The notes under the pieces: model-generated | What the model was told of the DNA's origin: nothing | Database searches by the model: none | What the model saw: only the letters and a program-made list of their open reading frames with translations | Program-made: the position numbers and the translations under genes | DNA from: Bacteroidota bacterium | GTDB lineage: Bacteria; Bacteroidota; Bacteroidia; Cytophagales; Cyclobacteriaceae | Assembly (NCBI GenBank): GCA_039198955.1 | Contig: JBCCTI010000031.1 | Location: 2,046 to 66,045 of the forward strand | Direction: 5' to 3' | DNA length: 64,000 bases | Part shown: one piece after another, positions 36,809 through 43,487 of the stretch | How positions within the stretch are numbered: position 1 is the first letter of the stretch | Layout: each line of letters opens with the position of its first letter

Positions 36809-37663
36809 CTAAAAGGCGATAGTATCTGGGAGATATTTGGATGCTAAATCTTCGTAGTAAGGCCGTAGCTCTTGTACGTTCGGGGCTTGAGGGGATTTAG
36901 TGTACAGATCGTAGGGGTTAAACGTATCTACCCACTTAAACATAGCATGATCATGCTCACTCATTAGATGATCATAGGCTCCTTCCCGGTGCTGGGCGTA
37001 GAAGGAGTGGTAACGCATAATGTAAAGGGCAGGTTCTGGCATGTAGTCCTTCATGGCGGTATACATATACTCATCGTGCCCCCAGGACATATGCACACTG
37101 TCTAACCCACAATTAGGCTCGTAGATTCCGTACTTGGTATTATAGCGCTCATTGTCAATATCAGGATTATCCTGGAAGAACTCCGGGTAGACAATCTTAT
37201 CAGAAAAACGACAGCCAACTGGAAAAGTATCGCCCACCACAGCCCACTGCGGTTCGCCGTACAGACAGAGAATTTTACCCAAATCGTGCAAAAAGCCCGT
37301 CAGCACAAACCAGTCGGGGTGACCGTCCGTCCGGATCGCTTCGGAAGTTTGTAGTAGATGCTGGGTCTGATCCAGGTCAATATCCGGGTCAGAATCATCA
37401 ATGAGGGTATTCAGAAATTCAACGGCCTCCCAGAGCGTCATTTTCCGCTTTTGCAGTTTTTTGTACTCCGCTTCTTTCGCCAGCACAAAATCGTAAGACT
37501 GGTACGTATGGTTGAGGCGGTAAAACTCCCGCACCGTATCCCGTCCGGGATTATCGTAGTTGCGGAATTCCTCCTTTTTCTTTTCCCCGGTTTCAGGATA
37601 GCGTTCTAGCAAATCCTCCTCCCACAGTTCTTCTATATCTAATGTTGGTTTTGTGTCTTTCAT
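36809..37663 (-). CDS. myo-Inositol oxygenase (MIOX)
   Basis: FRNY, VREFYRLNH, DDSDPD, HLLQTSEAIR, HDLGK, QWAVVGDTFPVG, SWGHDEY, RYHSFY and FNPYDLYTK. Confidence 0.92.
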   Translation of the reverse strand: MKDTKPTLDIEELWEEDLLERYPETGEKKKEEFRNYDNPGRDTVREFYRLNHTYQSYDFVLAKEAEYKKLQKRKMTLWEAVEFLNTLIDDSDPDIDLDQTQHLLQTSEAIRTDGHPDWFVLTGFLHDLGKILCLYGEPQWAVVGDTFPVGCRFSDKIVYPEFFQDNPDIDNERYNTKYGIYEPNCGLDSVHMSWGHDEYMYTAMKDYMPEPALYIMRYHSFYAQHREGAYDHLMSEHDHAMFKWVDTFNPYDLYTKSPQAPNVQELRPYYEDLASKYLPDTIAF

Positions 37664-38193: not shown

Positions 38194-39768
38194 TTACTGT
38201 CCTAACCAAATATATAGTGCAATAATTACAATGGTTAGTACGATACTAAACGGTTTGGCGTGCTTCCAGGGTTGCATATCCAGAATGGTTTTATCAGATG
38301 ACCAGGCGGGACGATTATTAGGGTAAAAATGTGATACACCGAACATCACCGCCATATTCAATAGAAACTCAATACCCCAGATATGCACAAAGTGCGTATC
38401 TATCTTAAATATAAATGTTGCGAGGATGTAAAACAATAGTCCAACAAACAATGCAGCTTTCGCCCCAACCGCTGAAATACGGGAGATAAACAGTCCAGCG
38501 ATCATGATAGAAGCAATCGGGATAAAGAAAATACCGTTCAACTGTTGCAATAATTGATACAGTCCTTCCGGAGCACTTGCTACCAAGGGTGCTGCCATGA
38601 TCGCTACAAGTGCCAAAATAGCCGAGCAGACTTTCCCCACCCGCACTAGTTGGCGGTCAGAAGCCGTGGTATTGATCAAGCGTTGGTAAATACCTACACT
38701 AAAAATCGTAGCCGCACTATTGAGTACGCTGTTAAAGGTACTGAGTACTGCTCCCATCACTACGGCTGCAAAAAATCCAACAAAGCTCAACGGCAGCACT
38801 TTTTTGATCAGCTCGGGGTAGATAGTATCTTGATTTTCGTAAAACCGATCACCAAAGTAGTAGTAGGCAATCACGCCGGGTAGCACGATGATGAGGGGCA
38901 CCAACGTTTTTAGCACTCCGGTATACAGTAATCCTTTCTGCGCTTCTTTCAAGTTCTTAGCTCCAAACGCCCGCTGGATTATCGTCTGATTCATCCCCCA
39001 GAAGTAAAGTTGATTAATAATTAAACCCGTAAACAATGTGCTAAACGGCAACACTGAGTCGGGTGCCCCGATCACATTAAATTTCTCAGGGCTATTTTCG
39101 TATACCCGAGACAAACCCGTGAACATATTGCCATCTCCGATATCCAACAAAGCTAATATTGGAACGGCTAAGCCGCCGATGAATAATCCAATGCCGTTAA
39201 TCGTATCCGAATAAGCCACTGCTTTTAAGCCCCCAAAAATAGCGTAACCTGAGCCAATCAATCCAATCACCACCACCGTAATCCACAGTCCTTCGCTTTG
39301 GGATACTCCCAAAACTCCCGATACATCAAAAATGCTTTCCAAGTTGATTGCTCCGGTGAACAGCACAATTGGTAGCAAGGTTACGACAAAGGAGATCATC
39401 AGAAATAGGGCTACCAGCGTACGGGTCATGCTATCGAAGCGCTCTTCCAGGTACTGCGGAATAGTGGTCAGACCCATCTTCAGATAGGTAGGAACGAAAT
39501 AGAGTGCTGCTACAATCAGTGCCAGAGCCGAGGTTATCTCCCAGGCAATAATAATGAAGCCATTCTTGTAGGCCGATCCGTTTAGGCCAATTAAATGTTC
39601 CGTAGAGATATTAGTCAGCAGCATCGATCCGGCGATCACTACCCCAGTAAGGCTGCGGCCACCCAGAAAGAAGCCATCGCGGGAGGATAGGGATTCTTTA
39701 CGAAGGCGATACCAGGAGTAAAAAGCGACAAAGGCTGTAAAGCCCAGAAAGGAAAGTAGGGTTTGCAT
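38194..39768 (-). CDS. Sodium:solute symporter (YidK-like), probably myo-inositol uptake
   Basis: FFLGGRSL, SMLLTNISTE, AYSDTING, YFWGMNQTIIQR and STFNSVLNSAAT; adjacent to MIOX. Confidence 0.85.
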   Translation of the reverse strand: MQTLLSFLGFTAFVAFYSWYRLRKESLSSRDGFFLGGRSLTGVVIAGSMLLTNISTEHLIGLNGSAYKNGFIIIAWEITSALALIVAALYFVPTYLKMGLTTIPQYLEERFDSMTRTLVALFLMISFVVTLLPIVLFTGAINLESIFDVSGVLGVSQSEGLWITVVVIGLIGSGYAIFGGLKAVAYSDTINGIGLFIGGLAVPILALLDIGDGNMFTGLSRVYENSPEKFNVIGAPDSVLPFSTLFTGLIINQLYFWGMNQTIIQRAFGAKNLKEAQKGLLYTGVLKTLVPLIIVLPGVIAYYYFGDRFYENQDTIYPELIKKVLPLSFVGFFAAVVMGAVLSTFNSVLNSAATIFSVGIYQRLINTTASDRQLVRVGKVCSAILALVAIMAAPLVASAPEGLYQLLQQLNGIFFIPIASIMIAGLFISRISAVGAKAALFVGLLFYILATFIFKIDTHFVHIWGIEFLLNMAVMFGVSHFYPNNRPAWSSDKTILDMQPWKHAKPFSIVLTIVIIALYIWLGQ

Positions 39769-39772
39769 AGGT

Positions 39773-39900
39773 TAATGATTGATGATGAATGAGTGATGAC
39801 TAATGATGAAAAGCGTATTATTAATCATCCGCGCCACGCGGTGGGCGCCCACCGCGTGGCGCGGCGGCCGCAATCATTATTCATTCATCATCATCGTAAT
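39773..39900. repeat. Heptamer arms enclosing a perfect 36-bp GC-rich palindrome (39829-39864)
   Basis: CCGCGCCACGCGGTGGGCGCCCACCGCGTGGCGCGG equals its own reverse complement; the flanks share GATGATGAATGA / TCATTCATCATC. Confidence 0.9.
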
Positions 39901-40908
39901 TTACGCAAAAAACCAGAAATCCCGCCTTGGCTCTTTTTCCCAACTAGCCAACTGATTCTGTATCCCAGGCAACATCGGGGGCGAGGTGACCACAACTAAA
40001 ATTTGCGGATAATCTAGTTCAGGAATTACTTCGACAGATTCTAGCTTTATCCCGTAAATCCCCTTCCCTATTTTCCGGGGATTATTGCACACCCAATGAA
40101 AACGCTCTTCTCGCTTTAACAGTAACTTAGCCAAGTCTTTCCCCTTTTTTCCTGCTCCCCAAAGTACTAAGGGACGATTCGGATCACGATCAAGATCGTA
40201 GAAATAGCGTGTTTTCAGATCAAAGAAACGATTATCCTGATAGTCATCATCATTGCGGGAGGTGCGATCCGGGCGGTCACGACAATAATTCAGGACTTTA
40301 TCTATCCCAACTATGTGCAGCTTTTGTTGGTAGAACCGGAAACATAAATCATAATCTTCGGGGTACACTTCCGGCGTAAACCCTCCTGCTATCTCAAAAT
40401 CATCCCGGTGCAGCAGCCAGCACTGCGAGGGGATCACACACTCGCGGTAAATTTCATGGTAATAGGTCTGATCTTTCGCAATCTGATTCAACCATCGCGC
40501 GTACCGCCGAAAACCATCACCTATTTCCTCACCGTCCATAAAGTACTCCATCCCTCCGGCCACTATAGTTCCTTTACCATGCTGCTGCCAGATACGGTGC
40601 ATCACTTCTAGTTTATCAGATGGCATAATATCGTCCGAATCCATGCGAGTGATTAATGTACCTCGTGAGTGTCGGTAAGCATTTTGCAGCGCGGGAATCA
40701 GCCCAACTCGATCAGTATCAAACACCCGAATCCGAGAATCTCGCTGGCTATACTCCGTCAGTATTTCTTTGGATCGATCCAAAGAATCATTATTCACCGC
40801 CACTAACTCCCAGTCAGAGTACGATTGGGCAATGATAGAATCCAGGCACTCGGGCAGATACCGTTCAGTGTCTCGTACTGACATGAGGATGGAAATAGTT
40901 GGGTTCAA
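39901..40908 (-). CDS. Glycosyltransferase family 2
   Basis: ISILMSVR, NNDSLD, TRMDSDD and PEDYDL. Confidence 0.85.
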   Translation of the reverse strand: MNPTISILMSVRDTERYLPECLDSIIAQSYSDWELVAVNNDSLDRSKEILTEYSQRDSRIRVFDTDRVGLIPALQNAYRHSRGTLITRMDSDDIMPSDKLEVMHRIWQQHGKGTIVAGGMEYFMDGEEIGDGFRRYARWLNQIAKDQTYYHEIYRECVIPSQCWLLHRDDFEIAGGFTPEVYPEDYDLCFRFYQQKLHIVGIDKVLNYCRDRPDRTSRNDDDYQDNRFFDLKTRYFYDLDRDPNRPLVLWGAGKKGKDLAKLLLKREERFHWVCNNPRKIGKGIYGIKLESVEVIPELDYPQILVVVTSPPMLPGIQNQLASWEKEPRRDFWFFA

Positions 40909-42206: not shown

Positions 42207-43487
42207 ATGTCAGAAAGAACTACATTAGAAAAAGGAGATGATTTTGAGAACCGTTCTAGGCAAATAATAGAACGTATGATTGACGAATCTCAAATTCCTC
42301 ATTTACGCGAATACATAAAGGTTTACGGACGAAAAGAAAAAGGGTATTACTCTAAATCCCGTGAAAAGAATATATATTTCGATTTAAGCATTGAGGTGTG
42401 GCCTCCTAATGCACAAAGGGCCTCATTCACGTATTTCATTGAATGTAAAAATTATGGAAAGTCTATTCCAGTCGATGATGTAGAAGAATTTCATGCAAAA
42501 GTTCGTCAAGTCAGTGGCTTAAATGTGAAAGCTATATTTATTGCTAATGCTCCTTTACAAGAAGGTGGATATAACTTTGCGAAGAATGAAGGGATTATGT
42601 TCGTACAGGGAGAATCATCCGAGAATTATCAAATCATTTTACACAAGTCGAGTATTTCTGATAAGGAAACTAAAATACCAACTGTAAAATCTTCAGCTAA
42701 TGAGAATATCGTTAATGAAGAGAGTATACCGCTTGTAAAACTTGTTGATTCAGTTATTCTCAGCGCATTTGAGAAGATAGAAAAAAACAATCGTATCTCA
42801 TACAGCATTGATAAACTGAGTCGAAACAGAATCATTGAAATAGCAGAACAGGAACTTCCCCAAATCAGTCCTTACATTTTCGAGGAAGGGCGCCCCTTAA
42901 CTGTTAAAAAGCTAAAGGAATATCTAATCTCACAATATGGCATAAAAGTATTTGAAATTGCTTCTAGCTCAGATTTGCTAGGTAGTTTTAATAGAAACGA
43001 TCGGCTAATTTCTATTAATAGCTCAATTGTTGATACAGGAAGAGAATTGTTTATTCTTGCCCATGAATTTGGTCATTTTGTTTTGCACAGTAAACTTCAA
43101 ATCGGACAAATAGCTTACGAAAGCTTCGAGGATTCAAAAATCAACTTTAGAACTGGAAAGTACGATCTGCGGAATCCAAAGAATTGGATTGAATGGCAAG
43201 CAAATCAGTTTGCCTCCTCTTTAGTATTGCCTAGAGCCTGTGTTTTGGCACGGCTTCGGCAGTACCAATATAAGAAAGGGTTAAGGGGTGAGAAATTATA
43301 TGTAGACGATCAATATGACAATCAGAAGACACTCTCAGAGATAATCAAACAACTAGCTTATATTTTCAGTGTGACTCAAACTTCTATTATTTACAAGCTT
43401 CGAGAGATGAAGCTGCTAGAAGAGAATTCTCGTCTAAAGTCAATAGGGCAAATTATTGCTGAGTATGACGATGAGTTAATAATTTGA
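42207..43487 (+). CDS. Restriction-endonuclease-like (Mrr-type PD-(D/E)XK) domain fused to ImmA/IrrE-family metallopeptidase
   Basis: N-terminal KGDDFE...FDLSIE...FIECKNY...DDVEEF...GGYNFAKNEGI; C-terminal ELFILAHEFGH (HExxH) and EWQANQFASSLVLP; AT-rich. Confidence 0.8.
   Translation: MSERTTLEKGDDFENRSRQIIERMIDESQIPHLREYIKVYGRKEKGYYSKSREKNIYFDLSIEVWPPNAQRASFTYFIECKNYGKSIPVDDVEEFHAKVRQVSGLNVKAIFIANAPLQEGGYNFAKNEGIMFVQGESSENYQIILHKSSISDKETKIPTVKSSANENIVNEESIPLVKLVDSVILSAFEKIEKNNRISYSIDKLSRNRIIEIAEQELPQISPYIFEEGRPLTVKKLKEYLISQYGIKVFEIASSSDLLGSFNRNDRLISINSSIVDTGRELFILAHEFGHFVLHSKLQIGQIAYESFEDSKINFRTGKYDLRNPKNWIEWQANQFASSLVLPRACVLARLRQYQYKKGLRGEKLYVDDQYDNQKTLSEIIKQLAYIFSVTQTSIIYKLREMKLLEENSRLKSIGQIIAEYDDELII

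Follow-up and report, generated by a model that had tools for sequence, protein, structure and literature searches.

Several kinds of small bacterial repeats bear on the locus described here. The small dispersed repeats SDR1-8 of Nostoc punctiforme and its relatives, reportedly described by Elhai et al. in 2008, are said to be tens of nucleotides long and lineage-restricted, to lie often within tandem heptamer arrays, to be nested at times in their own copies, and to share small hairpins, with no linked transposase. How such tiny repeats could spread without an enzyme has been a question since these cyanobacterial repeats. Template-switch mutations associated with quasipalindromes are said to have been described by Ripley in 1982. 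The conversion of quasipalindromes into perfect palindromes by template switching has been documented by the Lovett laboratory (PMC7202029), and there are accounts of the expansion of inverted repeats by template switching (PMC13100816) and of perfect inverted repeats in Proteobacteria (PMC5941160). Direct repeats of the heptamer TAACTGA are known from Beggiatoaceae, Cyanobacteria and five Bacteroidetes, where they occur near start codons and place stops in all frames, with one inverted case in the BOGUAY genome (MacGregor 2015, PMC4679880); no nested GC module is reported in that paper. REPIN families consist mostly of doublets (PMC3116915); both this paper (as its reference 43) and PMC5861425 cite Elhai et al. 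(Genome Res 18:1484, 2008) on small dispersed repeats.

Here we describe a perfect GC-rich palindrome between two genes of a member of the order Cytophagales (phylum Bacteroidota), and compare it with these systems. The best explanation of the palindrome is an inverted duplication private to this locus, set within a family of small repeats that is itself a new, genus-restricted version of kinds already known. More specifically, we assign a probability of about 0.6 to the reading that it is a private mutational product, lying in a three-layer nest of non-coding repeats, of a template-switch replication error. The window (the whole stretch of 64,000 nt that was analysed) is part of contig C31 of the source genome, G000, a 186-contig draft assembly of 7.03 Mb with 44.8% GC. 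Further genomes carry other G-numbers, and the genus set comprises 16 genomes, namely G000 and 15 congeners.

The palindrome occupies positions 39829-39864 of the window, where it is evident from the sequence, a palindrome scan and a DNA fold, and it consists of CCGCGCCACGCGGTGGGC followed directly by GCCCACCGCGTGGCGCGG, that is, 18+18 nt with 100% complementarity, zero spacer and 89% GC. An earlier reading made from the sequence only had claimed exact 36-bp self-complementarity without a spacer, and this is what we find. The palindrome is not a chance occurrence, because only 0.02 matches to its half-site are expected in the window and because such structures are rare genome-wide: the 7.03-Mb genome contains three perfect spacerless palindromes of at least 28 bp, and the one in the window is the sole GC-rich example. 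The other two are a 36-bp palindrome with 50% GC (TTAGGTACGGTAGAGTCGCGACTCTACCGTACCTAA) at C38:45996-46031 and an AT-rich 40-bp palindrome at C153:144-183, which resembles a bidirectional terminator. As a DNA hairpin the 36-mer has a predicted folding energy of -25 kcal/mol (z = -6.3), and the 151-nt transcript-sense RNA one of -69 kcal/mol (z = -8.0). The 30-mer and 16-mer consensus sequences of the repeat family to which the palindrome belongs (see below) are predicted to fold much like shuffled sequences (z = +0.55 and +0.46, respectively), so the extreme structure is private to the window copy. The sequence-only reading had also called the persistence of such a palindrome notable, which is an overstatement: strong palindrome instability applies well above 100 bp, and 36 bp is far below that size.

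Both genes flanking the palindrome lie on the minus strand and are separated by a gap of 132 nt (39769-39900). On the transcript, the gap is preceded by an open reading frame (ORF) for a family 2 glycosyltransferase (GT2; 39901-40908, minus strand, 335 aa; Pfam PF00535, E = 4e-27), whose stop codon is the TAA at 39901-39903, and followed by an ORF for a sodium:solute symporter (SSF; 38194-39768, minus strand, 524 aa; Pfam PF00474, E = 1e-54). The symporter is 82-89% identical in amino-acid sequence to its nearest relatives, which come from MAGs of Cytophagales that carry the labels Cyclobacteriaceae and Porifericola. A 173-aa ORF and then a myo-inositol oxygenase gene (36809-37663; PF05153, E = 1e-108) come after the symporter. 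Elsewhere in the window, positions 42207-43487 (plus strand) hold a 426-aa ORF with Mrr-like restriction endonuclease and ImmA/IrrE (Peptidase_M78) domains.

The gap is taken up by a long hairpin, the parts of which were delimited from the sequence and by comparison of repeat families, without assignment to a strand. Its left arm, at 39772-39809, consists of tandem TAATGAN-type heptamers (ttaatgattgatgatgaatgagtgatgactaatgatga); it forms the 3' arm on the transcript and stops 3 nt short of the symporter ATG. Positions 39810-39828 hold a locus-specific loop (aaagcgt) and then the first right-arm units (attattaatcat). Next comes a GC-rich core of 44 nt at 39829-39872, which family comparison resolves into CC-GCGC-CACGCGGTGG-GCGC-CCACCGCGTG-GCGC-GG-CGGCCGCA, and the right arm continues at 39873-39895 with TCATNNN-type heptamers (atcattattcattcatcatcatc), which on the transcript begin 5 nt past the GT2 stop codon. 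Positions 39780-39799 pair with 39874-39893 over 20 nt at 90%, including the 12-nt stretches GATGATGAATGA and TCATTCATCATC. Thus both of the earlier statements about the arms hold: they are AT-rich with 12 bp perfect and extendable, and the ORF coordinates place them from just past the GT2 stop to just before the symporter ATG. In the predicted minimum-free-energy RNA fold (39760-39910, minus strand), the structure is closed at its base by pairing between UUUGCGUAA, from the GT2 stop region, and UAUGCAAA, from the symporter start region, and the palindrome is predicted to form a side branch. Both UUUGCGUAA and UAUGCAAA are conserved in congeners that have just a 35-nt spacer at this junction.

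Hairpins of this type constitute the outermost layer of the nest and are common in the source genome, which contains about 65 of them. ATGA occurs in 95 arrays with a 7-nt period, compared with 0-6 for most control 4-mers and with 14 and 19 for the overlapping 4-mers AATG and CATT, respectively. Altogether there are 69 clusters of hairpins or arrays, mostly of the form (NAATGAN)n - unique loop - (NTCATTN)n, and 66 of the 67 elements that were scored are intergenic. Against a background taken from crude ORF calls covering 87.5% of the genome (2263 tandem, 509 convergent and 689 divergent junctions), the hairpins fall at 38 tandem, 22 convergent and 6 divergent junctions, an enrichment at convergent junctions. 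The TAATGA unit holds TAA, TGA and ATG, so that every reading frame meets stops within an array. The hairpins appear to be tolerated at gene junctions, because 9 of the 38 at tandem junctions, and about half of those at convergent junctions, leave 10 nt or less to the ORF at either end of the gap. This filling of the gap from stop to start, together with the stop/start pairing in the predicted RNA fold, suggests that hairpins may be tolerated in operons since their stems could bring stop and start codons together.

Heptamer arrays are present in 14 of the 15 congeners, one of which has about 240, and are rare outside the genus. The dominant heptamer is species-specific: in G009, G011 and G027, which comprise some congeners as well as a further family of this order, dozens of period-7 arrays of the reversed motif AGTA replace those of ATGA. 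At C19:73465-73653 of the source genome, a GC-rich segment of about 75 nt, possibly a tRNA as judged by eye, lies between two heptamer hairpins.

Lodged in the right arm near the tip of the window hairpin is the second layer, a genus-specific dispersed repeat of 15-17 nt, the short form of which is CCGCGCGGCGGCCGC(A). The window core is an expanded copy of this repeat, whose family includes a 16-nt short form and a 30-nt consensus long form. The usual long form, with about 12 copies, reads CC-GCGC-CACGCGGTGG-GCGC-GGCGGCCGCA; in the 16-nt short form (CCGCGCGGCGGCCGCA) the middle 14 nt are absent. In the short form two perfect palindromes, CCGCGCGG and GGCGGCCGCC, overlap; this form has 39 copies at no more than 1 mismatch in the source genome (about 0.1 expected), 26 of them intergenic. 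As the sequence-only reading had anticipated, the 18-nt half of the palindrome also recurs, with about 17 near-copies at no more than 3 mismatches, mostly within heptamer arrays. Once the core is masked, the flanks of the 39 short-form copies are mostly unrelated, with similarity in a few local or sub-family cases, and the repeat is therefore the short unit itself. Of the 16 genus genomes, 15 contain the exact 15-mer, each with 1-27 copies (0-1 for a reversed control); in 119 of 120 further genomes drawn from across the order there was at most one copy.

These cores are placed within the hairpins with some regularity. Inside TCAT/ATGA heptamer arms there are 12 cores of family A and 4 of a subfamily B, in which CCAC-GCG-GTGG is replaced by CCAT-GCG-ATGG, a compensatory change. 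All 12 family-A cores lie near the tip, 7-16 nt from a locus-specific loop, and they occur in both orientations relative to the arm. The loops differ among all core-bearing hairpins. The TCAT (or ATGA) motifs on either side of the core are 21, 35 or 49 nt apart in 10 of these 12 hairpins, such that the 7-nt register is kept; the other two cores are visibly truncated copies. Conserved register and proximity to the tip are not predicted by a simple replication error, and hint at a directed process.

Several candidate origins were rejected. Selection for a short motif, in the manner of HIP or uptake sequences, is not supported, as none of the unit's 8-10-mers is enriched by itself in the source genome. 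A cyanobacterial source, which the heptamers might suggest, is contradicted by the lack of HIP1 enrichment in this genome and by the Cytophagales relatives of its symporter. Unrelated flanks exclude the short form as the end of a larger MITE or IS, and the unique loops together with flanks that are not close exclude copying of whole hairpin-plus-core units. The hairpins themselves are not MITEs, given their locus-unique loops, flanks that are not closely similar, and arms that are degenerate tandem arrays without defined termini. We also observed the half-site in a non-heptamer setting, as part of a larger conserved repeat (C146:156 in the source genome, L095 and L106 in G010, L086 in G013 and L115 in G004) with the layout ...agtacccagccaaattaaagtatcacttttccatacgtca-CCGCGCCACGCGGTGGGC-GATCACGCGGTGAGC-GGGACTTTGCGAAGCGGTCTCC... 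and a second CACGCGGTGA-type unit.

The third layer is a 14-nt unit, composed of a 10-mer and GCGC, that is present 0, 1 or 2 times inside the repeat: the short form plus 14 nt equals the long form, and the long form plus 14 nt equals the window core. In the window the extra 14 nt (GCCCACCGCGTGGC) can be placed at 39847-39860, one of the equivalent placements, where they are the exact reverse complement of 39833-39846; removing them gives back the 30-nt family consensus. Both junctions of the insert (core offset 18) are GCGC. When we simulated a switch by copying the consensus up to the second GCGC, then 14 nt backwards, and then resuming, the 44-nt window core was obtained letter for letter. 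Direct tandem units are found on contig C20 of the source genome and in the congeners G005 and G013. Adjacent half-sites on opposite strands occur at the window locus only, among the 16 genus genomes and about 50 copies of the family. In metagenome contigs there are no exact matches to the 24-nt inverted junction; the 18-nt unit has at least 120 matches, which are uninformative, as among the matches listed nearly all are coding and from high-GC genomes. The window core has a single GGCGGCCGCA tail rather than two, which rules out a head-to-head doublet of complete elements.

Comparison of orthologous sites provides a view of how the layers combine. Within-genus comparisons are the informative ones: 80 species-level relatives chosen by symporter homology showed neither the synteny nor the element. 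The GT2-symporter junction is kept in several congeners, with a plain 35-nt spacer in G004, G005 and G015, a TAATGAN-type hairpin without the GC core in G012, and (CAATGTG)x16 plus an imperfect complementary arm in G013 (L118). Hence G013 and G000 differ in both heptamer type and array length at this junction. The core is present here in G000 only, among the genomes compared. At two more junctions, where the source genome (contig C70) has core-bearing hairpins, the hairpins of G013 and G015 are coreless. Thus at all three sites compared, which were picked for a core in G000, the core is missing from the orthologous hairpins, indicating that its gain or loss was independent of the hairpin that hosts it. 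The most parsimonious reading is a gain in the G000 lineage, although sites ascertained in this way fit precise loss elsewhere equally well. At the G005 orthologue (L119) of C70:26295-26400, a short-form variant (GGCCGCTGCGCGGT) lies in a different type of repeat arm from the TAATGAN hairpin that holds the long-form core in G000, and it looks as though related cores were acquired independently at one and the same site.

A replication error at GCGC would account for these forms in the following way. A TAATGAN hairpin occupies the GT2-symporter gap, with the GC-rich repeat sitting near its tip in heptamer register. In the window copy alone, the 14-nt unit would have been duplicated in inverted orientation, converting an imperfect hairpin into the perfect 36-bp palindrome. 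Because GCGC is self-complementary, a nascent 3' end that stops there could pair with the same-sense strand and copy backwards. Having switched template in this manner, the strand would copy 14 nt (CCACCGCGTG-GCGC) before rejoining the original template at the next GCGC(GG). Since priming within one strand is impossible for a fold-back that lacks a spacer, the switch would have to take place between strands or across the fork, on no more than 4-6 nt of microhomology, which is plausible. Ordinary slippage between GCGC motifs 14 nt apart would yield direct tandem duplications and the unit-less short forms, such that slippage and switching at GCGC could together explain all observed forms without an enzyme. 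The 30-nt precursor core is absent from the GT2-symporter junction of the congeners and is present only as paralogous copies, and the ancestral state is therefore deduced from paralogues. An alternative formal description, namely insertion of a 10-nt unit with duplication of the 4-nt GCGC, fits equally well, and the 14-nt increment equals two heptamers.

That second description leads to the principal competing explanation, in which either the 14-nt unit, as a 10-mer with a GCGC target duplication, or the whole core is an ultra-small mobile element capable of nesting in itself. It would insert at its own palindromic GCGC or into heptamer arrays, facing either way, and the copy in the window would have gained a second, reversed unit. 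The existence of copies with 0, 1 and 2 units, each bounded by GCGC, would fit such an element, as would a core present or absent independently of its hairpin at three orthologous sites, insertion in both orientations 7-16 nt from the loop with the register kept in 10 of 12 cases, and unrelated short-form flanks; it would also resemble the self-nesting small dispersed repeats reported from Nostoc. Nevertheless, we could link no candidate enzyme to it, the three RAYT-like genes of the genome having purely local repeats of their own, and no unit was found at GCGC sites outside the family. In addition, the 8-10-mers of the unit are not enriched alone, a single inverted pair occurs in 16 genomes, and slippage with template switching at GCGC suffices without any enzyme. 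We consider such a mobile unit unlikely. A broader form of the idea, according to which 'nano' mobile elements of 15-44 nt are placed near the tips of heptamer hairpins, in register and in either orientation, and the palindrome is a self-nested insertion, strikes us as possible if doubtful. Were it true, these elements would have neither terminal repeats nor a linked transposase and would be the Bacteroidota equivalent of the small dispersed repeats of cyanobacteria, with host hairpins tolerated in operons as their stems set the stop codon beside the next start.

The template-switch reading, by comparison, treats the palindrome as incidental, and two further explanations have to be weighed against it. 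One holds that the structure is selected, as a stabiliser, processing site, attenuator or uncoupler on the GT2-symporter transcript or as the site of a dimeric protein. Its very high predicted stability (-69 kcal/mol as RNA, -25 kcal/mol as DNA) and its position exactly between a stop and a start codon are in keeping with this, and the compensatory change of CCAC/GTGG to CCAT/ATGG in subfamily B is compatible with selection on a small hairpin, but changes of compensatory appearance can also result from template switching. The arrangement is moreover restricted to a single locus of a single species, the consensus cores show no unusual degree of structure, and congeners make do with a 35-nt spacer or a coreless hairpin at the same junction. 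In RNA the palindrome would add a very stable side branch to the hairpin joining the GT2 stop to the symporter start. The sequence-only reading had proposed that a strong RNA stem uncouples the inositol genes from GT2; such a stem is predicted, but the proposed uncoupling finds no terminator signature, as the minus (transcript) strand has no Rho-independent terminator, the stem being followed by AUGAUUAAUAAUACG with no U-tract, and Rfam returned sub-threshold chance matches only. Selection on this structure thus seems improbable. Since the congeners do without the core, and some even without the hairpin, the palindrome probably has no dedicated function. The other explanation is technical: the inverted 14 nt could be a fold-back or chimeric-read error, with a true core of 30 nt. 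The assembly is a draft in 186 contigs, and the palindromic form was seen nowhere else in the 16 genus genomes or in metagenome contigs. Fold-back errors, though, usually arise at contig ends and involve much longer inversions, whereas this palindrome, at 36 bp, is shorter than typical assembly k-mers. It is an internal feature of its contig, which exceeds 66 kb, and the unique sequences on either side of it are conserved in congeners. It is this combination of small size, interior position and conserved flanks that makes an artefact highly improbable.

The sequence-only reading had further suggested a REP-doublet-like insert. The cargo between the heptamer arms is indeed repeat-derived, but what is doubled in inverted orientation is the inner 14-nt unit alone. 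As in REP families, the repeat is a short, extragenic, imperfect palindrome, in modest number (39 short-form and about 12 long-form copies). REP sequences are expected mostly as inverted doublets, which here amount to the window copy only among the 16 genus genomes, and beside a cognate RAYT gene flanked by the same repeats. Three intact RAYT-like Y1 transposase genes of 180-182 aa are encoded by the source genome, at C11:57628-58176 (minus strand), C68:16785-17327 (plus) and C94:4976-5524 (plus), in line with an earlier suggestion to look for one; none, however, is flanked by the core or a heptamer array, neither of which occurs within 3 kb of any of the three. Each gene is adjoined by GC-rich inverted repeats of its own. 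Those of C11 and C68, when searched genome-wide, occur only beside their genes (2 and 4 copies, respectively) and have therefore not spread as REP families; those of C94 were observed locally, outside the genome-wide count. With two defining features lacking, doublets and a cognate RAYT, membership of the REP/REPIN-RAYT class is not supported.

While the palindrome is modest on its own, the nested repeat system that surrounds it is of more interest. It may be viewed in layers, wherein junction hairpins extend from stop to start, a genus-restricted double palindrome of 15 nt comes and goes independently of them, and a 14-nt module within that palindrome varies in number and orientation. Finding tiny repeats of this kind in a second phylum allows replication-error and enzyme-based models of their spread to be tested against each other, and the clean 0-, 1- and 2-unit forms, together with empty and filled orthologous sites, provide the material for doing so. 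If the template-switch reading is correct, the locus illustrates, in nature, how a palindrome can grow when sequence is duplicated in inverted orientation at a self-complementary microhomology of 4 nt. In addition, junction hairpins could alter operon expression and mislead predictions of terminators and small RNAs in Bacteroidota.

Set beside the known systems, the locus shares features with each. With quasipalindrome template-switch mutations it has in common that the new sequence would be copied from the complementary arm, with microhomology at the junctions; documented bacterial cases correct a few bases, whereas here 14 nt have been added with no spacer, as judged from sequence alone. Like REP/REPIN sequences (PMC3116915), the repeats are short, GC-rich, extragenic and palindromic and enriched at gene 3' ends, in a genome that, as REP/RAYT genomes do, encodes RAYT-like Y1 proteins. 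They differ in being singlets, in numbering tens rather than hundreds of copies, and in having no GTAG-type 5' motif. The heptamer arrays fall among intergenic heptamer tandem repeats (LSSR/TAACTGA-like/STRR): as in TAACTGA-like/STRR repeats, 7-nt units containing TAA and TGA are nearly all intergenic, abut start and stop codons, and have a sporadic, lineage-specific distribution. Unlike direct TAACTGA arrays, they form paired inverted arms that make long, gap-spanning hairpins, a subset of which carry a nested GC-rich module. It is this module, a dispersed unit with unrelated flanks embedded in heptamer repeats, that corresponds by description to the small dispersed repeats of Nostoc. The likeness, drawn from description only, spans Bacteroidota (order Cytophagales) and Nostocaceae, and the present repeat is distinguished by a unit of 15-17 nt made of two overlapping perfect palindromes, by its 14-nt add-on, and by host arrays that are inverted hairpins.
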